Source: Alphaproteobacteria bacterium
GTDB taxonomy: Bacteria > Pseudomonadota > Alphaproteobacteria > VGDZ01
Assembly (NCBI GenBank): GCA_016869515.1
Contig: VGDZ01000006.1
Span: 12,592-76,591 of the forward strand
Reading direction: 5' to 3'
DNA length: 64,000 nucleotides
Shown: positions 12,451 through 64,000 of the stretch, piece by piece
How positions within the stretch are numbered: the first letter of the stretch is position 1
Layout of the letters: each line of letters starts with the position of its first letter
Made by a program: the position numbers and the translations under genes
The notes under the pieces: model-generated
The model's database searches: none
What the model saw: only the letters and a program-made list of their open reading frames with translations
Told to the model about the DNA's origin: nothing

Positions 12451-13590
12451 TCATTCGGGGGCGTGGAGTCCCGTCGGCGCCCGGATCGCGATGCGGGCGG
12501 TTACGCTCAGGGATGCGGGATCCAGCGCCAGGACTTCGTCGGCGGCGGTCAGCGCGACCATGATCCGGCCGCCGCTCCGGTCGAGCGCCGCCGCTCCCAA
12601 GGCGCGGCCCGGGCGCGGAGTCGCGGCGGCAACAACGCGCCGACGAGCAAGGTCGAGCACCTCGATGCGATCGCCGGCGATGGCGATGGCATGGCCGGGT
12701 TGGGGATGCGCCAAGAGCCGGCCTCCGGGCCGGCTTAGCGGCATTTGTCCGACCAGGCGCCAGTCGACGGCGGAAACCAGGGCGATGGCGGCGGGTTCGA
12801 CGATCGGAATCGCCACCAGTTCCGCGCCGGCCGCCAAGGCCTTGCCGGCGGCGTATTGCCCCTTCAGGGCTACGGCCGCGAACACCCGCCCGATATAGAG
12901 ATCGAGCCCGCGAGCGACGGAAGCGCCAGGTCCGAGGCCGAGCAAATGCTCGCCGTCGGGCAGGGCGACGATCTCGGTCATGACGTCGGGCAGCGGCATC
13001 CGGCGCGGAAGAAAGCGCGGCACGGCGGCGGGCGGCCCGTCATTGCGATAGTCGTGCACCCAGCCGCGATGGGGCGGGTTGTCGCCAAGCGGTATCTCCC
13101 AAACCTCGGCAAGATCGGAAAAACCGACCAAGAAACTCTTGCGCGCGGGCAAGGCAAGCACCGCCGCGGGCGTCGGCGTATGGCCGCCCTCGATGCGCAG
13201 CGGAATGGAATGTCGCTCGGTCAAATCGGCCATCGCCAAGATCGACAGCGAGGGCGGCGCGAGGGTCGCAACCACGACCAGATCGCCGTCTCCCGAGGCC
13301 GCCAAGCCTGCCGGCCGGCCGCGCAGCCGCACCTGACCGACGATCCGGCCGGCGGCCAGGTCGATCCTGACGGCATGGCCGTCTTCAGTGGCGAGGACGG
13401 CCTGGCGTCCGGCCGGGTCGAAGCGGACGCTCGCGAGCGGCGCGGGCAACTGACCGATGTCGATCGCCTGGTCGTCGGCGATGACCGCGAGGTGGCCATG
13501 CTCGCCCATGGCCAGGACGGCCGCCGAGGCGGGCTGGACGAATGCCAGTGCCGCTAACATCGTGACGGTGCGCGACAGCGCTTGGGTCAT
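12451..13590 (-). CDS. nirF: cd1-like 8-bladed beta-propeller protein without a heme c motif (NirF-like)
   Basis: 379-aa protein with signal peptide and no CxxCH. Beta-propeller-like repeats. Positioned in a nirS locus. Confidence 0.55.
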   Translation of the reverse strand: MTQALSRTVTMLAALAFVQPASAAVLAMGEHGHLAVIADDQAIDIGQLPAPLASVRFDPAGRQAVLATEDGHAVRIDLAAGRIVGQVRLRGRPAGLAASGDGDLVVVATLAPPSLSILAMADLTERHSIPLRIEGGHTPTPAAVLALPARKSFLVGFSDLAEVWEIPLGDNPPHRGWVHDYRNDGPPAAVPRFLPRRMPLPDVMTEIVALPDGEHLLGLGPGASVARGLDLYIGRVFAAVALKGQYAAGKALAAGAELVAIPIVEPAAIALVSAVDWRLVGQMPLSRPGGRLLAHPQPGHAIAIAGDRIEVLDLARRRVVAAATPRPGRALGAAALDRSGGRIMVALTAADEVLALDPASLSVTARIAIRAPTGLHAPE

Positions 13591-13604
13591 GATCGGTCCC
13601 GTCT

Positions 13605-13738
13605 AGGGCATGATCGATCTGTCTTGAACCATAGAGTTCAAGACAGATCGCGGATCATGCCCTCGTATCCTGCTCTGGACCGCGATTCACGGTTCATAGG
13701 GAATCGCGGCCGTGATTCCCAATGAACCGATCGCGGTC
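13605..13738. repeat. MITE/REP-like intergenic repeat, copy A (two hairpin modules)
   Basis: Module 1 is an inverted repeat GGGCATGATCGATCTGTCTTGAAC...GTTCAAGACAGATCGCGGATCATGCCC. Module 2 is a nested palindrome GACCGCGATTCACGGTTCATAGGGAATCGCGGCCGTGATTCCCAATGAACCGATCGCGGTC. The same element recurs at four other sites. Confidence 0.85.
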
Positions 13739-14144
13739 TAGGGCCGGACAACGACCGAGCCGACCATGCCCTCCTGTTGCCAATGCGGGCCGCAAAGATA
13801 GCCATGCGTCCCCGGCGGCAAGTGTCGACATGCTCGCCGCCGAAGAGGCGGGCCGATTCCTCGCGTCCGGCGGCCTTGAACCAGACGCTGTGCGACGTCC
13901 GCCGATCGACATTGACGAAGCGCAGCGTGGTGCCGGGCGCGACCGCGATGCTGAGCGGGCAGAAGCTGTGCTTGTACATGGTCACGACCGGAACGCCGGC
14001 GGCGGAACTGGGTTGGCCGAAAACCTCCCGGTAGCGCTGCTCGGCCTCGGCGCAAATCTCGCGCTGCAGCGCGGCCTTGTCGGCCTGGGCGGCGGCGCCC
14101 ATCGCCATCAGGCACCCGACCACGGCCGCGATCGCCCGCTCCAT
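13738..14144 (-). pseudogene. cupredoxin (amicyanin/pseudoazurin-like blue copper protein) with an apparent single-nucleotide frameshift
   Basis: The N-terminal part (signal peptide MERAIAAVVGCLMAMGAAAQA, then ...HSFCPLSIAVAPGTTLRFVNVDRRTSHSVWFKAAG) is in one frame. The C-terminal copper-ligand motif GTHGYLCGPHWQQEGMVGSVVV is in another frame. The junction lies at ~13805-13835, in a G4/C4 run. Confidence 0.55.
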
Positions 14145-49748: not shown

Positions 49749-50002
49749 CGATAAGCCTCCCCGCGCGGAGCGATCTTGAGCACCCGCAACGTGGCGCTCG
49801 ATCGCTCGATCCGATAGATCGCCCGCCAATCGCCCAACCGCAAGCGATAGCAGTCCTTCATGCCGGCCATCGGCGCGACATTGGCGTGCAGGGCGAAAGG
49901 CGCTTCGGCGATGGCTTCGAGACGTCGCATCATGCTGGCCTGCATCTTGGGCGGCAGATCGAGCAGCCGCCTCGCGGCCGCGCGTTCGATCTCCAATTGC
50001 AT
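49745..50002 (-). CDS. RelE/ParE-family toxin (HigB-like; the toxin gene precedes its antitoxin)
   Basis: 85-aa protein with ...KDCYRLRLGDWRAIYRIE...LRVLKIAPRGEAY, as in RelE/ParE cores. Confidence 0.75.
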   Translation of the reverse strand: MQLEIERAAARRLLDLPPKMQASMMRRLEAIAEAPFALHANVAPMAGMKDCYRLRLGDWRAIYRIERSSATLRVLKIAPRGEAYR

Positions 50003-50246
50003 GATCCATATTCGCCGATAGCGAAGCCGATGTCACCTGCCAAGAAAGCGGGGCCTGCGGCCGCTTTCGGCGGAAAGCGGGGTAGAGGCAGGTTCGGGTA
50101 TCGCGTCAGCCCGCCGCGCGCGCGGTCATTGATGCGGGTTGCCCTGCGTGCCCGCTCGGTCGCGCGGGCTCATTTCCCTGCACAAATCGCCGCCGGGCTG
50201 GGCGATAATCCCGTCCACCTCGTCGCAGCCTTCGCAAGGAGCCCCC

Positions 50247-50708
50247 ATGTCCGCCGAATCGAAGCTCAAGCAGCTCGGCATCGTCCTGCCTTCCGTTCCG
50301 ACGCCGGTCGCGAATTACGTCCCCTTCCGCATCCACGGCAACACGCTCTATCTCTCGGGCCAGGGGCCGCGCACGCCCGAGGGCGGCTTCAAGACCGGCG
50401 TGGTCGGCCGCGACGTCGACGTCGCCACCGCCTATCAGCACGCGCGCGGCGTCGGGCTTGGCCTGCTGGCGGCGGCGCGCAGCGCGCTGGGCAGTCTCGA
50501 TCGGGTCGATTACGTGGTGAAGCTGTTGGGCATGGTCAACGGCGCGCCCGGCTTCGGCGACCAGCCCAAGGTCATCAACGGCTGTTCGGATTTGCTGGTC
50601 GAGGTGTTCGGCGATGCCGGGCGGCATGCGCGCTCGGCCGTCGGCATGGGCAGCCTGCCCAACAACATCACGGTCGAGATCGAGGCCATCCTCGCCATCA
50701 AGAGCTGA
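50247..50708 (+). CDS. ridA: RidA/YjgF-family reactive-intermediate deaminase
   Basis: 153 aa from the internal ATG (AAGGAG RBS). YjgF/chorismate-mutase-like fold motifs. Confidence 0.85.
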   Translation: MSAESKLKQLGIVLPSVPTPVANYVPFRIHGNTLYLSGQGPRTPEGGFKTGVVGRDVDVATAYQHARGVGLGLLAAARSALGSLDRVDYVVKLLGMVNGAPGFGDQPKVINGCSDLLVEVFGDAGRHARSAVGMGSLPNNITVEIEAILAIKS

Positions 50709-50810
50709 GCGGCCGGCCAGACGCCGGGCGCCCGCCCTGCCGATGCGCCGGCCCGGCCCGGCTGGCGGTCGGGTCGGCGGTGCGGCGGTGCGGCGGCTCA
50801 AGGCGTGGTC

Positions 50811-50839
50811 TTGACAAATACCCCCAAAGACGCCATATT
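50811..50839 (+). promoter_or_regulatory. sigma70-like promoter (TTGACA, 17-nt spacer, CATATT)
   Basis: Perfect -35 hexamer with a 17-nt spacer and a 4/6 -10 hexamer. No convincing ORF follows for ~600 nt. Confidence 0.35.
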
Positions 50840-51450
50840 GTTCTCTCCAATCCATGCTCGCGGCGCCGGCTGCGGGCGTGGATTCGCTGATGGACATGTG
50901 AACGCAGTCGCCAGGGGACCGAGCGTGGCCGGAACCACCGGCCGCTCGCTCGATTCCATATATCAATCCGCGTTGACCGTGACCGGTCAACGCGCCCTCA
51001 GGTGCCGGGCGGGCGCATCCGCGCCCTTGGCTTACGCGCCATAAGGCGCGCGGCCTCAATGGCCGTTTCAAAGGCCGTTCCAAGCTGCGCTGAGCAAGGC
51101 TCATCGCAGCTTGGCATTGTCCTTATGTTGTCTGGACGTTGCCCCGCGGCCGGTCGGGGGCTGAAGGTTAACGCGGGCTGCGCGCAAATCGCGCCCGGAA
51201 TCGGGTCAATGGTCGATTACCCTGTGAAATCAAGGCACTAGCCCAAAACAACTTGGCCATTTGCGCGTATTTGCGCGCCCAATTGGCTCGACTCCGCGCT
51301 TTTGGTGACCGGGTCCGCGCCGCTCCGGCGCCAACTGGCTCCGGCGCGCCCAAATGCGCGCCGCTCTCCACTCTCCTGCGCCAATTTAGGCGCCGACGCG
51401 CCCGAATGCGCGCCTTGCCGCATCAGTTCCGGAGGCTTAGGTTCGCGACC

Positions 51451-51960
51451 ATGACCCGATCCGGCGCGTTGCCCCTTGCCGGGGCGCTGTTGGCGCTCGG
51501 TCTGGGCCTGGGGGCCTGCGCCGACCAGGCCGGGCCGACCGACAGCGCGGCTTCGATGGTCGAGACCGCCGCGCCCAATCTTCTGGGCCAGATCGAGGTG
51601 CGGCCCGGTGCGCGCATCGGCGTGATCTACATCGCCGCCGACAATTGCCCGCCTTGCACCGCCTGGGAGCGCGATATCGGCCGGCGCTCCAAATCCGCCT
51701 TCCTGGCCGAGAACCGGGCCTTGCGGATCGAATGGACCGAGATCCGCGCCCGCAGCTTCGGTCGCACCAATTTGGATGCCGATTGGCCGCCGGAATGGCG
51801 CTTCGTGCGCGAGCGCACCAATGTCCGCAGCGGCACGCCGCGCTATCTCACCTTGGTCGACGGCAAGGTGGTGGCCAACACGCTCGGCACCTACGACTTC
51901 CACGACCGCACTTTGCTGCTGCTGCGCCAGCTCGCCGCCCGCCGCGACGCGCGGAGCTGA
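51451..51960 (+). CDS. lipoprotein with CPPC (thioredoxin-like CxxC) motif, hypothetical
   Basis: 169 aa from the internal Met. Lipobox LGLGAC. Sequence IAADNCPPCTAWERD. Confidence 0.55.
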   Translation: MTRSGALPLAGALLALGLGLGACADQAGPTDSAASMVETAAPNLLGQIEVRPGARIGVIYIAADNCPPCTAWERDIGRRSKSAFLAENRALRIEWTEIRARSFGRTNLDADWPPEWRFVRERTNVRSGTPRYLTLVDGKVVANTLGTYDFHDRTLLLLRQLAARRDARS

Positions 51961-51969
51961 GGCAGGCGG

Positions 51970-52677
51970 CTATTTCCAGCACCACAGCTCGCGGATGAAC
52001 TGGAGATAATAGGCCGCGCCCCAGCGGATCACTTGCAGCTTGCGCGTGCCGCCGCCGACGCGCGGCGGTTCGTCGAAGGCGAGTTCGGTCACCTTGAGCT
52101 TGCGCTTGGCCGCCCGCACCGACAGCAGCGGCTCGATGCCCATGGTGGTGAAGCAGATCCGCTCGTAGGGGACGTAGCTTTCTTCGCGGTGCAGGTCGAG
52201 ATCGAAGAAAATCTGCTTGCGATAGCCGCGCAGGATGACCATAGCGTCGGTGTAATTGCCGCCATGCAGCCGATTGACGGTTCCGGTGAACAGCCAGTTG
52301 CCGAAGCCGGTCACCAGGTCGTCGTCCTGGCTCTTGGCCGGCGGCAGGTAGCGCGAGGCGATGACCATGTCCCAGCCCTCGCGCAATTTGGCGGCCATGG
52401 CCGGGATCGACTCGACCAGGCTGTTGCCGTCGGGGCTGAAGGTGATCATGGCATCGCCGGTAATATGCTCCATCGCCTCGATGTAGCCGTGGCGGATGCC
52501 GCGGCGCTTCTGACGCATGACTTGGTAGCCGTTGGCTTCGCACCACTCGATGCTGCCGTCGGTCGAACCGCCATCGACGATCAGGATCTGGTTGACCCAG
52601 TCGCGGCCGATGGTCGGCATGATCTGTCTCAACCCGTTGACCTCGTTGAGCACAAGAACGACCAGCGAGATTTTCAT
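51970..52677 (-). CDS. GT2 glycosyltransferase (DPM1-like, soluble form)
   Basis: 235-aa protein with LSLVVLVLNE...DGGSTDGS...ASRY motifs. Confidence 0.8.
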   Translation of the reverse strand: MKISLVVLVLNEVNGLRQIMPTIGRDWVNQILIVDGGSTDGSIEWCEANGYQVMRQKRRGIRHGYIEAMEHITGDAMITFSPDGNSLVESIPAMAAKLREGWDMVIASRYLPPAKSQDDDLVTGFGNWLFTGTVNRLHGGNYTDAMVILRGYRKQIFFDLDLHREESYVPYERICFTTMGIEPLLSVRAAKRKLKVTELAFDEPPRVGGGTRKLQVIRWGAAYYLQFIRELWCWK

Positions 52678-52794
52678 GGCGAGCGATCTGAGTCCGGAAG
52701 GCGCGGCGCAGAAATCGGGCCGCGAAGGTGGACGGCCTCAATAGACCAACTCGGCGGCATCGGCAAAGCCAAAATGCGAGGCGGCGCTGGCCTA

Positions 52795-52898
52795 GGGGAT
52801 GTTCGATCGGTATTGAACCATAGGGCCCAAGACAGATCGTGAATCATGCCCTCTTGTCCCGCTCTGGACCGCGACTACCTATGAACCGATTGCGGTCC
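52795..52898. repeat. MITE/REP-like repeat, copy E (degenerate)
   Basis: TTGAACCATAGGGCCCAAGACAGATCGTGAATCATGCCCTC...CTGGACCGCGACTACCTATGAACCGATTGCGGTCC. Confidence 0.7.
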
Positions 52899-52918
52899 AG
52901 CCCCCTGACTCGATCGGT

Positions 52919-54337
52919 TCACCGCCAGCCGAGCTGCTGGGGCGTCGCCCAGCAGGCGTGGAATCCGGCCGGCACGCGCTGCGGGATTTCGAGCCGCACC
53001 ACCGGCCCCAGCGCCAGGTCGCGGGCCTCGAACACCTGGACCTCGGAACCGAGATCCCGGGAGCGCACGGCCAGCGTCACCAGCCAGCCTTCGTCCTCGC
53101 GCACGGCGTCGGGATGGGGAACGAACTGGGCCTCCGAGAACATCAGCCCCGATGTGGTCCAGGCCTCGGACTGGCCGGTGTCGAGGTCGTATTTCAACAG
53201 GCCGGGATGATAGAAGGCCGGCCGGTTGCGGCACAGCATGGCAAAGCCGTAGCGGGTCGGGCGCCCGACCCGCGCCGGATCGACGCAGGGAAACTCGGCG
53301 TTGATCTTGGGATCGAGGTAGAACTCGTTGGCGGTCCCGGTGGCAAGATCGAACTCCCAGCGATAGAGCCGCGCATCCATCTCCAGTCCCGCGATCATGG
53401 CGGCGAAGCGCTCGCAGTCGATCGCGCCCTGGGCGTCGCGCGGCGGCTCGTAGCGGCAGCCGACCATGATCACGCGCTCGCCTTCCTCCCAGGCGTTGAC
53501 GACGTGATAGAGAAAGCAGGGCTCGACCTCGAACCAGCGGATCGCGCCGCCATCGCCATGGCGCGGCAGGATACCGAAGCGGGTCGCGATCTCGGGATGA
53601 AAGCGCAGCTTGTGGCGCCCGGCCTTCAGCGCCTCCGCATCGTGAAACAGCGACAGATCGTGCAGGATCGAGAAGCGCTCGGTGATCGCCATGTCGTGCG
53701 GCAGCCGCGGGCCGGGCAGGTCGATCGGCGTGGCGTGGGTCAGCTTGCCGTCCGCACCCAGCACGCCATGGTGCATGTAGGGCGCCTCGACGCCGTAGCC
53801 GAAGATCATCATCTCGCCGCTGACGGGATCGACCTTGGGATGGGCCGAGATCCTGAACGGCGCGTCGAGCGGCCCGCGCGTGGCGAGCGTCGTCGGGTCG
53901 AGCGCGTAGGAGCGTCCGCACAGATACCAATTCGCCACCAGCCGCCCGCCGTGCATGGCGACGTCGGTATTGGCGGTATCCTTGAGCGGCATGTCCGGCC
54001 GATCGCGCCGCGGCGGGTCCATCACGCCCCGCCACAGCGCGCGGCCGGCGGCCTCTTCCTCGGCCAGCCCGGCGGTCCGGACATAGCGGTTGCGATATGA
54101 GGCCTTGCCGTCGCGGAAGCTGACGGCGTGGATCATGCCGTCGCCGTCGAACCAATGATGCCGTCCGGGCGGATCGAAGCGCGGATTGGGGCCGTTGCGG
54201 AAATAGGCCCCGGCCAGCTCGTCGGGCACGTCGCCCTCGAGCACGCGCAACTCGGCAACGTCGATTTCGGTCTCGATCGGCGCGTAGGCGCCTTCGATAT
54301 AGCGATCGAGCGGCCCCGAAACTGCTGGGCGGGTCAT
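52919..54337 (-). CDS. carotenoid cleavage dioxygenase family protein (RPE65/lignostilbene dioxygenase-like)
   Basis: 472 aa from the internal Met (GGAGG RBS). Four conserved His positions and the CCD beta-propeller pattern (...FDGDGM..., HD, FHAHW-like). An alternative start lies 27 nt upstream. Confidence 0.88.
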   Translation of the reverse strand: MTRPAVSGPLDRYIEGAYAPIETEIDVAELRVLEGDVPDELAGAYFRNGPNPRFDPPGRHHWFDGDGMIHAVSFRDGKASYRNRYVRTAGLAEEEAAGRALWRGVMDPPRRDRPDMPLKDTANTDVAMHGGRLVANWYLCGRSYALDPTTLATRGPLDAPFRISAHPKVDPVSGEMMIFGYGVEAPYMHHGVLGADGKLTHATPIDLPGPRLPHDMAITERFSILHDLSLFHDAEALKAGRHKLRFHPEIATRFGILPRHGDGGAIRWFEVEPCFLYHVVNAWEEGERVIMVGCRYEPPRDAQGAIDCERFAAMIAGLEMDARLYRWEFDLATGTANEFYLDPKINAEFPCVDPARVGRPTRYGFAMLCRNRPAFYHPGLLKYDLDTGQSEAWTTSGLMFSEAQFVPHPDAVREDEGWLVTLAVRSRDLGSEVQVFEARDLALGPVVRLEIPQRVPAGFHACWATPQQLGWR

Positions 54338-54380
54338 GGCGGCATCCTCCCCGGACGCCGCCATGATAGCCCAGCCCGCG

Positions 54381-55847
54381 TTACATCGCGCGGACCTTGA
54401 CCAGGAACTCGTCGACCTGGCCGGACAGCACCGTGGCGTCCTTGGCCAGCTGGTTGGAGGCCTGCAGCACCATGCCGGCGTTCTGGCCGGTTTCGCTCGA
54501 GGCTTGGGTGACCGACTGGATGTTGGAGGCCACTTCGCGCGTCGCCGCGTTCTGCTGCTCGACCGCCGAGGAGATGGCGGTGGTGATCTCGGAGATCTTG
54601 CCGATGGTGTCCGAAATGCCCTTGATCGACACCACCGTGGTGCGGGTCGATTCCTGGATGCCGCCGATCTGCTGGGCAATCTCCTCGGTCGCCTTGGCGG
54701 TCTGGTTGGCCAGGGTCTTGACCTCCGAGGCGACGACGGCGAAGCCCTTGCCGGCCTCGCCGGCGCGAGCCGCCTCGATGGTGGCATTCAGCGCCAGGAG
54801 GTTGGTCTGGCCGGCGATGTCGTTGATCAGCTTGACCACGTCGCCGATCTTGTTGGCCGCTTCGGCCAGGCCGGCGACCAGCTTGTTGGAGCGTTCGGCC
54901 TCTTCGACCGCGGTGCGCGCGATCTGCGAGGACTGGGTGACCTGGCGGCTGATTTCGCCGACCGAGGCCGAGAGCTCTTCGGTCGCCGAGGCCACCACCG
55001 CCGACTGCTTGTTGGCCTGCTCGGCCGCGGCGGCAAGGCTTTGCGAGGTGGCTTGCAATTCGGTCGCGGCGCTGGACACGGTCTCGACCACCTTCTTGAC
55101 CGAGGATTCGAAGTCGTTGGCCAGCTGCACGTTCTGGGTCACCACCGACCAGCTCAGCACCGGGCCGAGATACTGGTTGTTGCGGTCGTTCAGCGCCGAA
55201 ACCCGCAGATCGAGGGTCTCCGGCCCGACCTTGATCTTGGCGGCATGCGGCAGGTTCTTGGGGTCGCCCAGGATGCGGCGCTGGTGCATCGGGTTCTTGT
55301 GGAACACGTCGACCGAGCTGCCCAGGATCTTGTCGGCCGAGACCGGCAGGTATTGCTGCAGCTTGCGCAGGGTCTCCAGGCTGGTGCGGTTGATGTAGTT
55401 GATCTTGAAGTCGGTGTCGCAGCTCATGATGTTGATCGGCAAGTTGTCGATCATCTGCATCAGCCGGTCGTTGTCGTTTTCCTTCTTGACCGTGTCGGTG
55501 ATCAGCGACCAAACCACCATCGGCGCGACGTAGCGCGAGCCTTCCATCAGCGCGCTGACGTGCAAGTCCAGCCATTCGCCGCCGATGGTGATGCGCGCCT
55601 TGTGCGGCAGGTTGCGCGGATCGGCCAGCATGCGGCGCTGGTGCGCCGGGTTCTTGTGGAAGACGTCGATCGTCGTGCCGATCAACTGATCGGCCTTCAC
55701 CGGTAAAAGATGCTCGATCTTGCGCAGCGTCTCGATCGTGGCCCGGTTGGCGTAATCGATCTTGAAGGTCTGCAGGTCGCAGGTCATGACGTTGACAGGC
55801 AAGTCATGGACCATCTGCTGGAAACGATTCGAGCGCGAACCGAACAT
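54381..55847 (-). CDS. cytoplasmic methyl-accepting chemotaxis protein with two tandem N-terminal PAS-like domains
   Basis: 488-aa protein with no TM helices. Two paralogous ~110-aa domains, each containing DVFHKNP.HQRR, then an MCP signalling domain with methylation heptads. Confidence 0.9.
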
Positions 55848-55949
55848 CGGCCTTCCCCCTTGGGTAGTGGTCTAGGTAGTGGCCGCCAATTGACGGATTT
55901 CTATGGGCATTGTCTATAGGCTGAACGGCCTAAGTACCCCAATAACCCG

Positions 55950-56159
55950 TCAATTCATTAAGGTTACGCGGCGATACTTATCCCGATTACCGAGTTCGGT
56001 AACCGGAACCATTTTGCGTGCTCTGGGGTCGTGATTGGGTACGATGACCGCAAGCACTCTACCGTCCCGGCCGCGCTGAAGCTGGGTGACGGTCCAAATC
56101 GTCGCCGCACGATTGCCCTCGAGATAGCGATCGCCGACCGCCACCGGCTTTTCGGTCAC
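55950..56159 (-). CDS. small hypothetical protein (69 aa; GTG start)
   Basis: It is a paralog of the frameshifted ORF immediately upstream. Shared pattern: AVG.R(F/Y)...W.V......DGR.(Y/L)AV......P.......(I/V)..L.....(F/Y)RRV. Confidence 0.45.
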   Translation of the reverse strand: MTEKPVAVGDRYLEGNRAATIWTVTQLQRGRDGRVLAVIVPNHDPRARKMVPVTELGNRDKYRRVTLMN

Positions 56160-56193
56160 ACCGCAACTCGTCCGGGCATGGGATGCTCGGAAA

Positions 56194-56427
56194 TCACGCG
56201 GCGGAACAGGGCGCGGTCGCGCAACGAGCCGATGGCGATGGTCTTGAGATCGGTCGGGGAGTCGACCCGCGACAGGACGGCGTAGCGCCGCCCATCGACC
56301 GCGTCGTAAACCGCGCCACTTCCCAGACGAAGGAATGCCGGTCCGATTGCTGGAAACGCCAGCCGACCGCGATTTCCTCTTTGCGACTCATCCCGCTTGC
56401 CTTCGCCGAACTCCGCGCCCGACGCAA
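56194..56427 (-). pseudogene. second copy of the small paralog, apparently frameshifted
   Basis: MSRKEEIAVGWRFQQSDRHSFVWEVAR is in one frame. ...AVYDAVDGRRYAVLSRVDSPTDLKTIAIGSLRDRALFRRV is in the next. Together they align to the 69-aa downstream ORF. Confidence 0.3.
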
Positions 56428-56511
56428 ATCATGAAAGCCCCGGCGATGAAATTCAAGCGTCGTGACGATGCGCCTGACGATTGCTATTATCGAGACCGCT
56501 CAGGGGGACGC

Positions 56512-56898
56512 ATGACAAAAGAACAGCTGCAGGATTTCGAGCGGCGCACCTTTCCCAAGGGTACCGTGATCTTCAATCGCGGCGATCTGGCCGACTATGC
56601 CTACATCGTCCAGTCCGGCACGATCGACATCTGCCTCAAATTGGGCGGCGAAGAGAAGCCGTTCGAGACCATGGCGCGCAGCGACGTGTTCGGCGAAATG
56701 GCGCTGATCGATTCGCGGCCGCGCTCGGCGACAGCGGTGGCGACCTCGGATGCGGTCTGCCTGGTGGTGACACGCAAGCGGTTCCAGGACGCGCTCGATG
56801 CCGCCGATCCGCTGGTTTACGCGCTGTTGCGGCTGTTGACCCGACGGTTGCGCCACACCACCGAACATCTCGAGCAGGTCACCGCCAAGCCTAGTTGA
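56512..56898 (+). CDS. stand-alone cyclic-nucleotide-binding domain protein
   Basis: 128-aa protein with GGGGGA RBS and a cNMP-binding beta-roll (...FGEMALID..PRSATAVA). No DNA-binding domain. Confidence 0.8.
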   Translation: MTKEQLQDFERRTFPKGTVIFNRGDLADYAYIVQSGTIDICLKLGGEEKPFETMARSDVFGEMALIDSRPRSATAVATSDAVCLVVTRKRFQDALDAADPLVYALLRLLTRRLRHTTEHLEQVTAKPS

Positions 56899-58267
56899 GC
56901 GAGGCGTTGTTGCGCACGAAGGTCAGGTAGGGCAGCCGCGCGACTTCGCGCGCGGCGACGGCATAGCCTACCACCAGGGTCAGCACGGTGGCGATGAAAT
57001 AGCCGTAGCCATACCAGGCAAATCCCATCTTCAACGTCACCCAGCTCAGCACGCCGTTGCTGACCATGAACAGCAACTGCAGCATCAGCATGTGCCGGCG
57101 CAGGTCGAAATAGGCCAGTACGATGCCGACGAACAGCAGCATGACGTGGAACAGCGCCCCCAGCACGCCAAAGCGGAATATGCCCAGCTGCGTGGCTGGG
57201 ATGCCCATGGCATCGAACAGCCCGGGCGCGACCAGGATCGCGGCGCCGGCGATGCAGGCCTGCAGCACGATGACGTTGCGCGCCGAATCGAGCAGGCTTT
57301 GGATCAATGCCTTGTGATTGCGGCGGATGCGGTCGAGGTTGGCGTGGCCCTGGATGTCCTTGTAAAAGCGCTGATAGTGCTCGAAGAAATCGGTCTCGAT
57401 CGAGACGATGAACACCGCCAGCGCCGGCACGATGGTGAGATAGGCCAGGAACATGGCCGAATCGTAATCGGGAAACGAGATCATGCCGCCCATCGCTTCC
57501 TGCTCGGGCGCGAACCACATCACCCATTTGTCGATCCAGATGGCGACGTTGTAGGCCAGGCCGGCCAGCGCCAGATCCCAGTAGCGGCCGAAGTAGCCGA
57601 GGAAGGCGAAGGGCCGCTGGATCGGATAGGGGTATTCGGCGAAGACCCGCGAGATCAGCGAAAACAAGATGACCGCCAGGCCGATGTCGAATCCGCCCAT
57701 CAGGCCAAGCGCGCCGAAACGCTCGACCAACGCGATGCCGCCCAGGAACGACGCCGCCATGCCGATCGCAAAGGCATAGGTGATGGAACGAAAATCCTTG
57801 AGCGCGGTCAGGTAGAGGCCGACCATCCAGATGCCGGAGACGAGGTGGAAATTGACGATGGTCGCGATCCGCATCGGATCGCTCATCTTGGCGACGCTGA
57901 AATAGAACCACGCCACCGGCGGCGTCGACACCAAATACAAGATTCCCAGCCCGGCCAACAGCATGCCGGGCGCCTCGGCGACGCGCTTGGTGTAGATCAG
58001 ATCGGCCAGATAGCGAGTGGCGACGATCACCAATGGCCCCGAAAACACCAGGCTGAAGGCGAAATTGTAGATCAGCGCGATGCGGTAGGTGCCGATCTCG
58101 TTGATGGTGGTGAGCTGGCCGCCGATCAGATTGATGCCGCCGACCGCCAGCACGGTGAACATCCACGGCCCGGCCGAGACCAGGGCCGAATGGGCATAGC
58201 ACTCGATGATGCCGAGCAGATCGTCGCGGCGAGCCAGCTTGCGAAGCGCGAATCCGATGCCGGCCAT
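56891..58267 (-). CDS. pelG: Pel exopolysaccharide biosynthesis protein PelG (MATE-like 12-TM protein)
   Basis: 458-aa polytopic protein with PelG-family similarity and length. Confidence 0.85.
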   Translation of the reverse strand: MAGIGFALRKLARRDDLLGIIECYAHSALVSAGPWMFTVLAVGGINLIGGQLTTINEIGTYRIALIYNFAFSLVFSGPLVIVATRYLADLIYTKRVAEAPGMLLAGLGILYLVSTPPVAWFYFSVAKMSDPMRIATIVNFHLVSGIWMVGLYLTALKDFRSITYAFAIGMAASFLGGIALVERFGALGLMGGFDIGLAVILFSLISRVFAEYPYPIQRPFAFLGYFGRYWDLALAGLAYNVAIWIDKWVMWFAPEQEAMGGMISFPDYDSAMFLAYLTIVPALAVFIVSIETDFFEHYQRFYKDIQGHANLDRIRRNHKALIQSLLDSARNVIVLQACIAGAAILVAPGLFDAMGIPATQLGIFRFGVLGALFHVMLLFVGIVLAYFDLRRHMLMLQLLFMVSNGVLSWVTLKMGFAWYGYGYFIATVLTLVVGYAVAAREVARLPYLTFVRNNASLN

Positions 58268-58268
58268 G

Positions 58269-59789
58269 TCACGCCGCCATTTCGGCCGCGGTCGGCGCCG
58301 GCCGATCCGGCGCCGCCCTCAGCTCGGCATAGATATCGCGATAGATGCGGTCGATGTCGACCTTGTTGTAATAGCGCCGCACGCGCTCGCGGATGGCGTG
58401 GCTGCACTTGGCGCGCCAGGCCGGGTCCATCAACAGCCGCGCCAGCGCCTGGGCGGTCGAAGCCGGGTTCGACAACGAGACGATGGCGCCGGCCGGGCCG
58501 AGCTGAGGTTCTTCGTCGGACCGGCCGAAGATCATCTCGCGGCAGGCGCCGACATCGGTCGCCACGGTTGGCACGCCGGCGGCGCCGGCTTCGAGGATCA
58601 CCAACGGTTGGGCCTCGCTGATCGAGGTCAAGGCGATGGCGTCGAGCTTGCCGAGATGATCGGTCAGCGCCACCCGGCCGAGGAAGATCACGGTCTCGCT
58701 CAGGCCGAGATGGCTCACCATGCCTTCGCATTCCTTGAAGTATTCCTGGTCCTCGTCGGTCGGCCCCATGACGTAGGCCTTCACGTCGGGAATCTGGTCC
58801 TTGAGGATGGCGGCCGCGCGGATGAAGGTCTTGACGTCCTTGATCGGCACCACCCGGCCGATCAGCGCCACCGCCGGCGGCCGCGCCGCGGGATCGGGCT
58901 GGACCTTGGAATAGCGCGCATAGTCGATGCCGTTGGGCACGATCGCCAGCCGTTCGGGCGGCGCGCCGTCGCGGCGCTGGAGGTCCTGGTTGCCGCCATA
59001 GAGGGTGAAGATGCGCTCGCAGGCCTGATAGCAGGCGCGGCTGTAGCCGATGAAGGTGTCGATCCACAGATCGCGCAAGTCGCGCCGCGGCTTTTCGATC
59101 GCCAGTCCGGCGGCCGAGGCATCGGACAACCAATCGGCCATGGCGATCTCGATCCGGCGCTCGTTGGTGTAGATGCCGTGCTCGGTCAAGATGGCGGGAC
59201 GGCCGGTGATCAGGCGCGCGCGCGCGGCATAGAGACCGGCATAGCCGGTCGACACGGCATGATAGAGGCGGCAGGGAGGCAACGGGCAGATCAGGGTCGC
59301 CAACAGCCCGCCGAGCTGCGCCCGCCAGCTCCAGAAATAATCGATGAACGAGGCGCTGGGCATGGCCTTTTCGTACATGTGCGACAGCAGGTTCCAGGCC
59401 GCATCGGAATCGAGCAAAATATGGCGACCGATGTCGCCAGGCCGGTAGCTCCCGAGATGCCCGACCAGTTCGGCCAGATCGGCCAGTCCGCCTCCGGCCT
59501 GAAGGCGGATCAGCGCCGGTTCGAGATCGCGCAGCAGGTTGCGCCGGCCGGGGACCCGGCTGCGGCCGCGCGGCATGTCCTGCAGGCCGACCACCGTCAA
59601 GCCGCAGACGTTCTTGGGGACTTCGTAGCGATGCTGGCGCGGCTTGGCATCCGGCATCAGCGTCAGGAGATGGAAGCTGAGATCGGACTGGGCGCGGATC
59701 AAGTCGTGCACCCAGCTCGACACGCCGCCGGCGACGAAGGGGTAGGTGCCTTCCAGCACCAGGCAGACATCGGCCGGTGCAGTGCTCAT
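58269..59789 (-). CDS. pelF: Pel biosynthesis glycosyltransferase PelF (GT4)
   Basis: ~506 aa from the internal Met (MSTAPADVCLVLEGTYPFVAGGVSSWV...). GT-B/GT4 fold similarity. Start overlaps the pelE stop (ATGA). Confidence 0.9.
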   Translation of the reverse strand: MSTAPADVCLVLEGTYPFVAGGVSSWVHDLIRAQSDLSFHLLTLMPDAKPRQHRYEVPKNVCGLTVVGLQDMPRGRSRVPGRRNLLRDLEPALIRLQAGGGLADLAELVGHLGSYRPGDIGRHILLDSDAAWNLLSHMYEKAMPSASFIDYFWSWRAQLGGLLATLICPLPPCRLYHAVSTGYAGLYAARARLITGRPAILTEHGIYTNERRIEIAMADWLSDASAAGLAIEKPRRDLRDLWIDTFIGYSRACYQACERIFTLYGGNQDLQRRDGAPPERLAIVPNGIDYARYSKVQPDPAARPPAVALIGRVVPIKDVKTFIRAAAILKDQIPDVKAYVMGPTDEDQEYFKECEGMVSHLGLSETVIFLGRVALTDHLGKLDAIALTSISEAQPLVILEAGAAGVPTVATDVGACREMIFGRSDEEPQLGPAGAIVSLSNPASTAQALARLLMDPAWRAKCSHAIRERVRRYYNKVDIDRIYRDIYAELRAAPDRPAPTAAEMAA

Positions 59790-60903
59790 GCCGTGCGGCC
59801 CGCCCACAGCCGCAGCACTTCGCGCATCTCGTGCGGGAACGAGGCATCGGCCTCGGCGCCCTCGAGCCTGTGCGATGCGATCTGCCGCATCTCGGCGAAG
59901 CGACCGAGCCGGAACAGGCATTCCAAGTACCAGTCGTGCAGGCGGCGGTCGCGCGCGCCCGCATTGATCGCCGGCTCGATCGCCTCCAGCGCTTCTTTGA
60001 ATCGGCCGTCGCGCAGCGCGATGCGTCCGACGGCGCTGCGCACGGTGTTGTGTCGGGGATCGAGTTCGAGGCCCGGCGATAATGGGCCAGGGCGCGGTCG
60101 CGGTTGGCGGCGGCACGCTCGGGGTCGAGCAGGCCCGAGAAGGCGTAATCGTCGTAGGCCAACGCCAAGGCCAGAAAAGTATCGAACTCCTTGGCCCCTT
60201 TCGCGATCTCGCCTTCCAGCCGCATGATGTCCTTTTGGAAGCGGTTTTCGATCTGTGCCGCGGCGGTGGCGGCCTGGACGCGAATCGCCGGTTCGCCGTC
60301 CGACAGCGCCATGCGCAGCGCCTCGGCGAAGCGGGGTTTGTAGTGCCGCGCCAACAGCGCGATCACCGCGCGTTTCTGCTCGAGCGTGCCGAGCGAAAGA
60401 ATGTCCGCGAAAGACGCGACCGAGGCCGGTGTCGCCGCGGTGTCGCGGCCGGCGACGATGGTGTCGTAAAGCTCGCGTGCCGAGCCGAGTTCCTCTTCGG
60501 GAAAGAGCGAGGCGTACCACTCCTCGAAGGTGCTGGCGGAACGCCGGAACCAGGCGTGCAGTGCCAGGGTGAACAGCGCCCCGCCGACACCGAAGGGTCC
60601 CAATGCCAACGTCGACAAGGCCAGCAAGGTGGTGAAGCGCGAGTCCTCGCCCGCGGCCTGCCGCCAGGCGGCATGCGCCCCCAGGATCAAGCACAGCCCG
60701 ATATGGGCCAGCGCCACCGGCGCCAGCGTCGTCGGGTCGCGCACCAATGTCACCATCATCACGCTTTCGGCGACGGCGGCAGCGCTACCCAGCATCGCCA
60801 GCTCGGCCCAGCGCAACCGGCCGGCGCTGGCCAGAGTCCGGCGCGGTGCCGCCTCGCCCAGCCCGTGGCCGGCGGCGACGACCGCGGCGTTAAGCCCGCT
60901 CAT
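59786..60903 (-). pseudogene. pelE: PelE (inner-membrane TPR protein) with an apparent +1/-1 frameshift at ~60073
   Basis: The N-terminal TM/TPR part is in the frame starting at 60903 (MSGLNAAVV...ALAHYRRA). The C-terminal TPR part (LELDPRHNTVRSAVGRIALRDGRFKEALEAIEPAINAGARDRRLHDWYLE...) is in another frame. The junction is at CGCCGGGCCTCG (a GGG run). Confidence 0.65.
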
Positions 60904-62305
60904 CGCGCTTGACCTCGTGCAGCACTTGGACCGAAGCCGTCATCTTCAGGTTCGAAGCCGCCGACGGCAGGTTGCGCTTGAGATCGGCCAGCAGCTTGTC
61001 GGCCACGGCGCCGGCGTTGGCGACCGGGGTCGCCGGCAGCATCAGGACGTATTCGTAGCCCTGGCGGCGGAAGTCGAACGCCAGGTCGGTGGTGCGCAGT
61101 TGGCGCTGGACCGCATCCGAGATCGCCTGCGATACCTGGCCGAGCGTGTCGGGATCGAGCCGATCGGCATCCTCGATGCGCAGCACCACCAGCGGCACGT
61201 CGAAACCGACCCGCGCCGCCAGCGAGCGCATGAACTTGGACTGGCGTTCGAAATAGCCGGCCGACATCAGCTGGCCCGCGCCCGACAGAACGCTGGTCTC
61301 CTCGGCCAGCTGGTAGCGCAGCGCGGTGGCGTAGGCGGTGCCGATCCAATCGCACAGCACCCGGAAGTTCTCGATCGCGGCGATGTTGAACTCGCGGAAC
61401 CCCATGCGCTCGATCTTGAGCATGCCGATCAATTCGCCGGTGTCGGGGTTGACCAGCGGTCCCGCCAGCACGCCTTCGCCCGCCAGCACCCGTTCTTCGT
61501 TGGCGCGCGCCGCGCACACCACCTGGCGGCCGGAGACGATGGCCGCGAACAGCGGCGCCGACGCCGCGAAGCGCCGGCCGAACTTGTCCTCTTCGGTCCA
61601 GCCTTCGCACAGCATGGCTTCGAGCGCGTCGCGATTGAGCACGAACACCGAGAACGCCTCCGGCGACAAGATTGCGCGCACCAGTCCGGAGACCCCGGCC
61701 ATGACCTCGCCCGGACCCAATTTCTCGATCCCCTTGGCGGCTTGGTAGGTCGAGATCACGGTGCGCATCTGGCCGGCGACGCGGGCTTCCAGCTGGTCCT
61801 TGGCCAGCGCCATCTGGCGATAGGTGGCGGTGATGACCTGGGTCTCGCGGTTGGCTTCGTCTAGATTGACCGCCAATTCCTCTTCGCGACGGGACTGGCG
61901 CATGCGCAGTTCGCCGAACACCACCGCCGACAGCAGCCAGCCGGTGGGCTGCCAGCTGATCTCGAACAGATAGGCATAGAGGTCCTGCTCGATGCGCTGC
62001 GGCGGCAAGTTGCCGACCAGCAGCACGGCGCTGGAGACCGCGGCCGCGACCAGCCCCTCGTTGGTGCCGTATTGCACCGCCATCAGCATGACGATCAGCC
62101 AAAAGGGATGGGGCGTGACCGAGCGGAAGCGCGTGCCTTCGAAGAAGACGAAGTCGAGCGCCAGCACCAGCACGTAGAATCCAGCCATCTCGATCAAGCC
62201 GCTGCGGCGCAAACCCAAGAAGCGCACCGGCGCGCGGGTCACCGCGGCCGTCCCGCCTGCCTCGGCCGGAGGCGGTTTCGAGGCTGGAGGCGGCGGCGCG
62301 CTCAT
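60890..62305 (-). CDS. pelD: PelD (c-di-GMP-binding inner-membrane protein with GAF and degenerate GGDEF domains)
   Basis: 471 aa from the internal Met. N-terminal TM helices, then GAF-like and GGDEF-like domains. PelD-family similarity. Confidence 0.85.
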   Translation of the reverse strand: MSAPPPPASKPPPAEAGGTAAVTRAPVRFLGLRRSGLIEMAGFYVLVLALDFVFFEGTRFRSVTPHPFWLIVMLMAVQYGTNEGLVAAAVSSAVLLVGNLPPQRIEQDLYAYLFEISWQPTGWLLSAVVFGELRMRQSRREEELAVNLDEANRETQVITATYRQMALAKDQLEARVAGQMRTVISTYQAAKGIEKLGPGEVMAGVSGLVRAILSPEAFSVFVLNRDALEAMLCEGWTEEDKFGRRFAASAPLFAAIVSGRQVVCAARANEERVLAGEGVLAGPLVNPDTGELIGMLKIERMGFREFNIAAIENFRVLCDWIGTAYATALRYQLAEETSVLSGAGQLMSAGYFERQSKFMRSLAARVGFDVPLVVLRIEDADRLDPDTLGQVSQAISDAVQRQLRTTDLAFDFRRQGYEYVLMLPATPVANAGAVADKLLADLKRNLPSAASNLKMTASVQVLHEVKRDERA

Positions 62306-62307
62306 GC

Positions 62308-63846
62308 TCAGAACCGCCACACTCCGAACACGCCGGCGGTGCGTTGAATGCCGTCCGAAGTCCGACTGGTGGTGTGGGCGAAACCGGCGCGCAGGCCGAT
62401 CTCGAATTCCGGGCTCGGTTCGTGCGACCAGGAGAGGTTGAACAGCGGGCCCTTGGCCGAAGTCAGAAAGTCGAGAGCATAGCCGCCGGTCACGGTCAGC
62501 CAGCTGTCGCTCGAATGATCCCAGCGCCATGCGACCTCGGTCGAGTGGGTGGCGCGCGAGCGCAAGTCGAGCGGCGCATAGGAAGCGCGCGCGGTATCGA
62601 AGCGCTCCTGCCGGCGCGGCACCCATTCGTTGTCGGCGATGTAGCCGAGCGAGATCTCGTGGCCGCCGCCCGAATACATGGTCCGCCGCAGTGCCGCCAG
62701 CGCGCGCCAGGAATCGGCCACGTTCTGGTCGTCGCGCACGCCGTAGCGCCGCCGTCCGCCGCCCGCGGTCAGGGACCAGACCTCGGCGAAGCTTTGCTGA
62801 TGTTGGATTTCGAGCTTGTCGACCGTGCCGCCATCGGCCAGGCCCTGGACGATGTCCCAATAGGGCTCGTGATAGGAGGCGGTAAAGCGAGTCTCCCGTC
62901 CCGGCGCGCGTTCGACATGTTCCGCGCCGAGGCCATAGACGTCGCGCGCGCCGAAGGCGCGGATGCGGCTCTGCCCGCCCTCGGTGGTGAAGACGCCGGC
63001 GTTGAGCTCGACCTGGACGTTTTCGTCCGAACGCGAGCCGAGCCGGCCGTCGATCCGCCGCAGCGAGCGCGTATGCAAGGTGCGATGCTCGGCCTTGAAT
63101 CCGATCTCGCGCTCGGCGTCCGGGTAGGCGAAGCCGGCGACTTTGTCGATTGCCTGGCGATCGGCGCCGTGGACCTTCTGATAGCCGAGATCGGCCTTGA
63201 CCTGGGTCTGGCGATCGCGGGCCAGCCGGCGGCGGGCCGCGGCCAGCTCGGGATTGGCGGGATCGGCCTTGATCGCGGTGTCGAGATCGGCCAAAGCGGC
63301 CGCGTACCGACCGCTTTGCTCGTTGAGGCCGGCGCGCTGCGCCAGCACGTCGGCTTCGGGCGGGCGGCCGACGATCAGGCCGTCGAGCACGATGCGGGCT
63401 TCGCCCGGCTGACCGCTTTCGGCCAGCATGCGGGCACGAAGCTGATCGAGCCGGCGCCGGGCGGCGTCGTCGCCAGTGGCCTGGGCGCCGGCCGGAAGCA
63501 AGGCGACCGATACGGCAATCCGGTTCAGGCGTTGATCGACCGCGAACCGCGCCGGGCCCGCGGCCCGAATCAACACCGTGTCATAGCCCGTGCCTATGGC
63601 TTCCAAGACCGGCGGCAAGGCGCGCTGCAGCGCGGCGAAGGCGGTTCCGTCAACCGCGCCGCGATAGGTGATCAGGATTTCGCGGCTGTTCAATTCGGCC
63701 CAGCGCGTCACCTCGATCGGCGATTCGATCGCCAAGTCGAGCCGACTCGGCTCCGAGCGCTCGACCGTCGCCCGCCACGCGGTTTGCGCCAGGGCGGCGC
63801 CGACCGTCATCCCCAAGCCCAGCCCGACCCAAAACCGCCATCTCAT
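62308..63846 (-). CDS. pelB: outer-membrane TPR plus beta-barrel protein, resembling the PelB C-terminal half
   Basis: 512-aa protein. Signal peptide MRWRFWVGLGLGMTVGAALAQ, TPR-like N-terminal region, beta-strand-rich C-terminus ending with the aromatic ...GVFGVWRF. Confidence 0.6.
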   Translation of the reverse strand: MRWRFWVGLGLGMTVGAALAQTAWRATVERSEPSRLDLAIESPIEVTRWAELNSREILITYRGAVDGTAFAALQRALPPVLEAIGTGYDTVLIRAAGPARFAVDQRLNRIAVSVALLPAGAQATGDDAARRRLDQLRARMLAESGQPGEARIVLDGLIVGRPPEADVLAQRAGLNEQSGRYAAALADLDTAIKADPANPELAAARRRLARDRQTQVKADLGYQKVHGADRQAIDKVAGFAYPDAEREIGFKAEHRTLHTRSLRRIDGRLGSRSDENVQVELNAGVFTTEGGQSRIRAFGARDVYGLGAEHVERAPGRETRFTASYHEPYWDIVQGLADGGTVDKLEIQHQQSFAEVWSLTAGGGRRRYGVRDDQNVADSWRALAALRRTMYSGGGHEISLGYIADNEWVPRRQERFDTARASYAPLDLRSRATHSTEVAWRWDHSSDSWLTVTGGYALDFLTSAKGPLFNLSWSHEPSPEFEIGLRAGFAHTTSRTSDGIQRTAGVFGVWRF

Positions 63847-63897
63847 GCGAATCGTACCCCACCGTCCCGGACATTAAGCCGTGCTTTCAAGTCATTG

Positions 63898-64000
63898 ACC
63901 AGTCAGCATTTGACGAGCTTCGGCGGTGCGGCCGGCATCGAGCAGTGCGGCGACGTAATCGGCCCGCAGCGAGGCATCGCGCGGCCGCTCCTCGACCAGA
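63898..64000 (-). CDS. 3' end of a TPR-containing gene (possibly the PelB N-terminal TPR portion); truncated by the window
   Basis: Minus-frame translation ...DASLRADYVAALLDAGRTAEARQMLTGQ*. Only ~34 codons are visible. Confidence 0.35.

Follow-up and report, generated by a model that had tools for sequence, protein, structure and literature searches.

A pel exopolysaccharide locus without pelC in an alphaproteobacterial metagenome-assembled genome, and its relatives

Gene Content and Organization of the Locus

The DNA analyzed in this study is a 64,000-nucleotide stretch (hereafter the window) of contig VGDZ01000006.1 from an alphaproteobacterial metagenome-assembled genome (MAG; GCA_016869515.1), and one of its ends carries a cluster of pel genes for exopolysaccharide synthesis and export from which pelC is missing. 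This cluster is not a damaged pelABCDEFG operon but a member of a distinct, little-studied, and mostly alphaproteobacterial operon family in which PelA is split, PelB is divergent and often split, and pelC is facultative. The original prediction, made from the sequence, had described five minus-strand genes as a PelB (C-terminal)-D-E-F-G core, and profile searches together with a structure model support all five, co-oriented and at the same coordinates (Table 1), with profile matches for pelD, pelF, and pelG, identity to an intact PelE for pelE, and a fold match for the pore gene. Since the G+C content of the region is 62-70%, mechanical lists of open reading frames (ORFs) are crowded by spurious frames, and the real minus-strand genes were picked by profile searches.

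Table 1. Genes of the pel locus in the window (aa, amino acids; TPR, tetratricopeptide repeat).
Gene	Coordinates	Strand	Product and evidence
pelG	56891..58267	-	458-aa inner-membrane protein; full-length match to Pfam PelG (PF16933), 1e-125, residues 1-450 on profile positions 1-452
pelF	58269..59788	-	GT4 glycosyltransferase, polymerase of the system; NCBIfam NF038011 PelF equivalog, 1.6e-131, 439.7 bits (cutoff 100)
pelE	59786..60903	-	Transmembrane and TPR protein; frame broken at ~60071/60072; apart from the frameshift 100% identical to the 372-aa PelE of contig L001
pelD	60890..62305	-	471 aa; membrane region, GAF domain and degenerate GGDEF domain; Pfam GAF_3, 1e-10, and weak C-terminal GGDEF matches
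pelB-like pore gene	62308..63846	-	512 aa; only TPR models match by profile; fold of a PelB pore
TPR-protein gene, 3' end	63892..64000	-	Last 35 codons and stop; Pfam TPR_19, 8e-5; runs off the window

The window PelG is identical in sequence to GenBank MBM3567712.1 (locus tag FJX46_03045), which lies on a 77,498-bp MAG contig. PelF contains the Pfam domain DUF3492 (1.6e-75) at its N-terminus, and also Glycos_transf_1. PelD is predicted to carry the conserved RxxD site for cyclic di-GMP (c-di-GMP), which reads RTTD here with R404 and D407 invariant in the PelD alignment, and its GGDEF position reads QGYEY; searches of PDB with the single sequence and with a profile both returned generic GGDEF domains and no solved PelD. 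Spacing between the genes is tight, with an overlap of 14 nt between pelD and pelE, an overlap of a few nt between pelE and pelF, and a gap of 1 nt between pelF and pelG.

A PelC lipoprotein gene (GNA1162-like, PF05643) between pelB and pelD, as in the canonical Gram-negative PelBC machinery, is missing here. The stop codon of the pore gene (62308-62310) and the start codon of pelD (62303-62305) are separated by 2 nt, which leaves no room for pelC at that place. The original prediction had reported this absence and suggested a hidden Markov model (HMM) search for PelC. Such an HMM, built from 42 sequences including PelC of Burkholderia thailandensis, was run against six-frame ORFs and gave no match at E < 10 in the whole window or in the related contig L001 described below. 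Two PelC sequences likewise gave no match by tblastn, and positions 50001-64000, the final 14 kb of the window, yielded no tblastn match to PelA, PelC, or PelX.

Little sequence could be recovered beyond position 64000. Exact look-ups of the pore protein and PelD gave only L001, a 5.7-kb Logan contig, and for PelG none was on record. L001 adds 908 nt, which brings the recovered part of the TPR protein to 338 aa, made up of TPR repeats. Neither the TPR fragment nor the pore protein retrieved upstream sequence in metagenome scans, and a scan of genome contigs with the window PelD alone found nothing. Because the look-ups, the scans, and a search for the PelA deacetylase gave no further upstream sequence, the contig probably ends at or near the window edge. 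As the original prediction had it, pelA probably lies beyond that edge, and from the gene order of relatives we infer that pelA and pelX would be located upstream in this genome. The same prediction had proposed that pelA and pelC immediately upstream would make this an ordinary pel operon. That refutation fails, as in the loci of this family that carry pelC the gene is located between the pore gene and pelD and was not found upstream.

The Pore Protein and the Split PelB

The 512-aa protein is, as modeled, a PelB-like outer-membrane pore module. Its AlphaFold2 model, built from a 74-sequence alignment, has a mean predicted local distance difference test score (pLDDT) of 92.4 and shows a Sec signal-peptide helix, a beta-rich domain (residues ~25-116), five helices equivalent to ~2.5 TPRs (122-212), and a 16-strand barrel (215-511) with a short helix between strands 7 and 8. 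The best Foldseek match in PDB is PelB of the Pseudomonas aeruginosa PelBC complex (9h80_M; E 7e-16, TM-score 0.77 on the target), followed by BcsC and PgaA.

At the sequence level, the pore family is very distant from canonical PelB. The window protein has no match to Pfam B-barrel_PelB_C (PF24604) at E 0.01, and an HMM of the pore family (A1) reported no match to PelB of B. thailandensis. When the same profile was searched against PDB sequences, TPR proteins dominated the result, which gave no information on the barrel, and a word-index homolog search with the pore protein returned only itself. An exhaustive HMMER search of 1.84 billion representatives identified 549 relatives, most of which are stand-alone proteins of ~500 aa, while some form the C-terminal third of proteins of ~1,450 aa.

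The upstream TPR gene ends at 63892 and is an ORF separate from the pore gene. PelB in the window is split into two genes, one for a periplasmic TPR scaffold and one for the pore, each with its own targeting signal, and is not truncated. The homologous TPR proteins of loci L002, L004, and L087 are 1018-1308 aa long.

The N-terminal beta-domain has no Pfam match (residues ~25-116). Modeled alone (pLDDT 87.5), it consists of eight strands and one helix. Its best TM-scores are to AMIN domains, namely PilQ B2 (4aqz, 0.67) and AmiC (4bin, 0.61), but no match reaches E ≤ 1e-3, and small heat-shock proteins are similar by E-value; the assignment to an AMIN-like, peptidoglycan-binding beta-sandwich is only a lead. 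The possibility that this domain acts as a built-in substitute for PelC was rejected because PelC-positive pore proteins have it equally. Charge compensation in the PelC-less pore proteins was also considered, and no consistent difference between the PelC-positive and PelC-negative classes was found.

A 1-bp Deletion in pelE

L001 is a 5,753-bp Logan assembly contig from run SRR7985589 that matches the window over 4,845 bp with a single gap (blastn). The gap is a single-base difference at ~60071/60072, where L001 reads CGCCGGTGCCTCGAA and the window reads CGCCGG-GCCTCGAA, a 1-bp deletion. The two pieces of the window pelE are therefore in different frames: an N-terminal piece of 277 codons (60073-60903) ends in ALAHYRR, and a C-terminal piece of 94 codons (59786-60070) begins with LELDPRHNTV. 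PelE of L001 is intact at 372 aa, and PelE of the relatives is 367-393 aa long. GenBank annotates only an 85-aa C-terminal fragment of the window PelE (MBM3567714.1), and the deletion is therefore present in the deposited contig. After the shift, the frame is open over 925 codons and extends across pelF.

Frame breaks in pelD-G are found in the window and in one other of ~85 related loci. That other case is L044, in which the PelF match is split over two frames (~12594-14075). Because the independent SRR7985589 assembly has an intact pelE, the deletion would reflect an error in the assembly or consensus or else variation within the population.

A Distinct Family of pel Operons

Related loci were collected by scanning one genome per GTDB species with a PelD alignment and keeping the best 80 of 166 loci, and reference proteins served as tblastn queries to annotate their genes. 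The sample includes many Azospirillum species, Tagaea, Roseospira, Caenispirillum, Roseomonas, "Rickettsiales" and other alphaproteobacterial MAGs, Gammaproteobacteria/Chromatiales MAGs, Magnetococcales, and Acidobacteriota. Among the scanned loci, identity to the window PelD reaches only 48-52%, which indicates that the window organism has no close species-level representative in the scan.

The gene order of the family is an optional pelX epimerase gene, a pelA hydrolase gene (GH114 type), a pelA gene for a reductase-like/CE4 deacetylase, the pelB TPR scaffold, the pelB pore, an optional pelC, and pelDEFG. The window copy represents the split-PelB, PelC-less form and comprises the pore gene and pelDEFG, preceded by the final 35 codons of the TPR scaffold. 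Its nearest relatives (L002, L004, L010, L003, and L006) have the same order and lack pelC. In L002, the pore protein of which is 39% identical to that of the window, two cyclic-nucleotide-binding genes are followed by genes for a short-chain dehydrogenase/reductase-type epimerase, a GH114 hydrolase of 290 aa, a 740-aa protein, a TPR protein of 1,147 aa, a pore protein of 504 aa, and PelDEFG. L004 and L005 are arranged as L002 is, with a TPR protein of 1,308 aa. TPR and pore regions are fused in a single gene in L003 (1,456 aa) and L006 (1,083 aa).

The 740-aa protein of L002 matches residues ~256-811 of the solved PelA structure 9cgy (E 1.3e-56) and contains the CE4-type motifs HVDADGW and SHTFTHP, a match which indicates that PelA is split into a hydrolase gene and a reductase-like/deacetylase gene. 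Most related loci that reach far enough upstream encode PelA as two genes, a GH114-type hydrolase and a protein of 740-790 aa, and in several loci (among them L044, L057, L060, and L081) only the hydrolase was detected. These relatives show that the canonical pelABCDEFG operon, which the original prediction had used as its comparator, is the wrong reference for this locus.

Some members deviate from the general pattern. In L049, L063, and L068 the order is rearranged, with GH114 and TPR genes downstream of pelD-pelE, and in L049 pelC adjoins pelF. In the Tagaea clade (L070, L071, L074, L076, L079, L083, and L084), the PelD match stops at residue ~334 of 471; it starts at ~10001 in most of these loci, at 3897 in L070, and at 2828 in L076. 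This suggests that the GGDEF-like, c-di-GMP-binding part of PelD is missing or too divergent in this clade and that regulation may differ.

Genes near the window operon were also annotated. A cyclic-nucleotide-binding gene (56335-56898, plus strand; Pfam cNMP_binding, 1e-22) is convergent with pelG and overlaps its 3' end by 8 nt. It may be a conserved regulatory neighbor, comparable to the two such genes upstream of the L002 operon (1682-2493). Downstream of pelG, minus-strand genes at 51970-55847 encode a PAS-containing methyl-accepting chemotaxis protein (54381-55847), an RPE65-type carotenoid oxygenase (52919-54787), and a GT2 glycosyltransferase (51970-52677).

Presence and Loss of pelC Across the Family

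Among 73 species-level loci with an identifiable pore gene, pelC is present in 32 and absent from 41. Where present, it lies between the pore gene and pelD; PelB is split in 29 of these 32 loci, fused in one, and not assigned in two. The 41 loci without pelC have a gap of about -100 to +170 nt at this position, with PelB split in 19, fused in 20, and not assigned in two. The PelC HMM gives E ≤ 1e-55 in every positive locus and no match at E < 10 in the locus DNA (up to 10 kb on each side) of any of 48 negative loci. A 169-aa ORF upstream of the L003 operon was tried as a hidden PelC and rejected; it has a signal peptide, but no lipobox and no match to the PelC HMM.

The operon of Azospirillum thermophilum illustrates the PelC-positive state: a 217-aa "GNA1162 family protein" with a lipobox (LAGC) is encoded between the pore gene and pelD. 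GNA1162-like proteins are the PelC family. Two tandem pelC copies occupy this place in five Gammaproteobacteria/Chromatiales MAGs (L012, 8656-9923; L013, 8734-9956; L017, 8470-9923; L020, 8626-9926; L078, 690-1960).

The presence of pelC is scattered over a tree of PelF and PelG. The window falls into a group with L002, L004, and L010, all of which have a split PelB and lack PelC. PelC-less taxa are nested among PelC-positive Azospirillum, and sister pairs differ in Magnetococcales and Chromatiales. The loci of Azospirillum rugosum and Azospirillum canadense are collinear with 90-92.6% nucleotide identity, and a clean 659-bp deletion in A. rugosum corresponds exactly to pelC (9297-9955 in L007 versus 9955-9968 in L008), with the region upstream of pelD kept. 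The pore proteins of the two species are 86.6% identical with one gap. Judged from this alignment, A. rugosum appears to be a natural pelC knock-out in a cultured type strain.

Are the PelC-less Operons Functional?

PelD, PelE, PelF, and PelG are each encoded in a single frame in nearly all loci. In a comparison of two PelC-less Tagaea genomes, the ratio of nonsynonymous to synonymous substitution rates (dN/dS; Nei-Gojobori method) is 0.04-0.10 for every gene, the pore and TPR genes included. The values are 0.03-0.06 for a pair of PelC-less "Rickettsiales" MAGs and 0.06-0.27 for A. canadense against A. rugosum. Such low values reflect strong purifying selection, which argues against the PelC-less state being decay, and the PelC-less operons as a class look functional without an adjacent pelC.

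The original prediction had left three options for the window locus, namely a PelC-independent export route, a pelC kept elsewhere, or a non-functional operon. For the class, recurrent clean loss, intact genes, and dN/dS values of 0.03-0.10 favor PelC-independent export, as far as sequence comparison can indicate. For this particular sequence, one point, the pelE frameshift, speaks for the non-functional option. Our preferred explanation, to which we assign a probability of roughly 0.6, is that the locus belongs to a distinct pel family in which PelC is optional and of which the window copy is the split-PelB, PelC-less form. We regard as evenly balanced the broader proposal that the PelC ring is dispensable in a large, mostly alphaproteobacterial family, in which a divergent, often split PelB with an AMIN-like domain would alone export the polymer across the outer membrane and pelC would have been cleanly lost many times.

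Several points weigh against our explanation. The locus sample is biased, as the PelD patterns were derived from PelC-less loci and the best 80 of 166 were kept. For this genome, pelA and pelX have not been seen, and a search with the PelA-deacetylase homolog of L002 returned no protein from the 77,498-bp contig. If real, the pelE frameshift would render this copy inactive. Any genome-wide search is bounded by the completeness of the MAG to which the window belongs. The searches covered the window and locus DNA, so that a pelC or another GNA1162-like gene might act in trans in this MAG or in any PelC-less species. No experimental study of any member of this operon family was found in the literature.

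That the genome carries pelC at another place and provides PelC in trans, in which case export would still be PelBC-like and only the position of the gene would differ, is unlikely in our view. The window is a fragment of a MAG, GNA1162/CsgG-like lipoproteins are common, and the pore proteins of PelC-positive and PelC-negative loci do not differ in domain layout; both have the terminal TPRs to which PelC binds in Pseudomonas (PMC12141448). Yet in 33 of 33 PelC-positive family loci the gene lies directly between the pore gene and pelD, with none elsewhere in up to 10 kb on each side, and loss is a more parsimonious account than repeated independent relocation in many lineages. With A. canadense PelC as the query, 137 proteins were returned at E ≤ 1e-10; as a weak negative, none of the best 120 of these 137 is named A. 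rugosum, and the closest unnamed match among the same 120 lies in an ordinary PelC-positive operon. We consider it less probable still that this copy is a non-functional, decaying operon, with a genuine frameshift and with the absence of pelC belonging to the same decay. The deposited contig does carry the deletion and only a PelE fragment is annotated, all seven pel genes are required in P. aeruginosa (PMC10269871), and the 925-codon shifted frame would also disturb coupling to pelF. On the other side, the SRR7985589 assembly is identical over 4845 bp except for its intact pelE, all other genes are intact, and a comparable frame break occurs in only one other of the ~85 loci. The absence of PelC is common to intact, selectively constrained relatives and is thus not a sign of decay.

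It is very improbable that the locus makes some other polymer and exports it by a generic BcsC/PgaA-type TPR-barrel protein, with "Pel" as a loose label. The pore protein and PelD lack significant sequence matches to canonical PelB and PelD, and BcsC and PgaA are the next-best structural matches of the pore. Nevertheless, PelF and PelG match their own family models far above cutoff, and the best structural match of the pore is PelB, with the helix between strands 7 and 8 in place. In addition, the relatives carry a PelX-type epimerase, an endo-alpha-1,4-polygalactosaminidase, a PelA-type deacetylase, and in some cases PelC.

With PelC as an optional component, the system might operate as follows. 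By homology to Pseudomonas, PelF would polymerize a chain rich in N-acetylgalactosamine, and PelD, PelE, and PelG would transport it through the inner membrane, regulated by c-di-GMP at the RxxD site of PelD. The chain may be partly deacetylated by PelA enzymes bound to the TPR scaffold, and the polymer would exit through the 16-strand barrel of the pore protein. The PelC lipoprotein ring would be an optional accessory in this family, and many lineages, including that of the window, would export without a pelC in the operon. We infer both the identity of the polymer and export without any PelC.

Comparison With Known pel Systems

The locus shares with pel of P. aeruginosa clear PelF and PelG family members, a PelD with GAF and degenerate GGDEF domains and an RxxD site, a PelE with membrane and TPR regions, and the tightly packed D-E-F-G order. 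The published P. aeruginosa PelB structure has 16 strands with a short "Plug-I" helix between strands 7 and 8 (PDB 9h80; PMC12141448), and the window pore model likewise has a 16-strand barrel after the TPRs with a helix at the Plug-I place. Unlike P. aeruginosa pel, the window lacks pelC, PelB is divided between a TPR protein and a pore protein that has a signal peptide of its own, the pore is undetectable by Pfam B-barrel_PelB_C, and PelA of the relatives is encoded by separate hydrolase and deacetylase genes. A beta-sandwich of ~95 aa precedes the last TPRs, and this domain was not detected in the one canonical PelB tested (B. thailandensis).

The pel operon on plasmid NZ_CP029356.1 of A. 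thermophilum (L087) belongs to the same family and encodes an epimerase, a polygalactosaminidase, a PelA deacetylase, a TPR protein, a pore protein with the beta-domain, and PelDEFG, with a PelG 54% identical to that of the window. It differs in the 217-aa PelC encoded between the pore gene and pelD, where the window has 2 nt.

Fission of pelB was reported earlier in aquatic thermophiles (Bundalovic-Torma et al., 2020; PMC7112194, Fig. 5iii). As in those loci, PelB in the family described here is encoded by separate genes, and gains, losses, and rearrangements of pelA and pelB occur. The taxonomic group is a different one, and neither PelC-less diderm operons nor a Rhodospirillales-centered family is described there. 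The same survey noted frequent pel "locus losses", attributed mainly to Gram-positives, and the strings "Azospirillum" and "Rhodospirill" are absent from its text. Gram-positive pel loci (pelDEA_DA FG, Bacillus cereus; PMC7112168) resemble the window family in the lack of PelC, in separate PelA deacetylase and glycoside hydrolase genes, and in an epimerase gene that is often adjacent. Unlike those bacteria, which have no outer membrane and no PelB, members of the present family encode a complete TPR-plus-barrel exporter, which indicates that the cell is diderm and still PelC-less.

Surveys of Gram-negative pel loci from the Howell laboratory used PelC as a BLAST query (PMC7112168; PMC7890745; bioRxiv 10.1101/2020.05.26.111013), and PelC-less diderm loci would therefore have been missed. 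Surveys seeded with PelC thus undercount Gram-negative pel loci. A full-text literature search returned no paper on PelC-less Gram-negative pel operons or on Azospirillum Pel in a library that is incomplete, and the pattern may already be published.

Taken alone, this is a rather ordinary pel cluster of a MAG, and its frameshift may be an artefact. It points to a wider pattern of facultative PelC in a large diderm pel family with a divergent, often split PelB and a split PelA. PelC has been described as both essential for Pel export and unique to it, and the 12-mer ring that it forms has a central place in the current PelBC model. Recurrent, selectively kept PelC-less diderm operons would mean that the ring is a dispensable accessory or that another factor replaces PelC. 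This question is directly testable by experiment in two cultured type strains, A. canadense, which has PelC, and A. rugosum, in which pelC is deleted.

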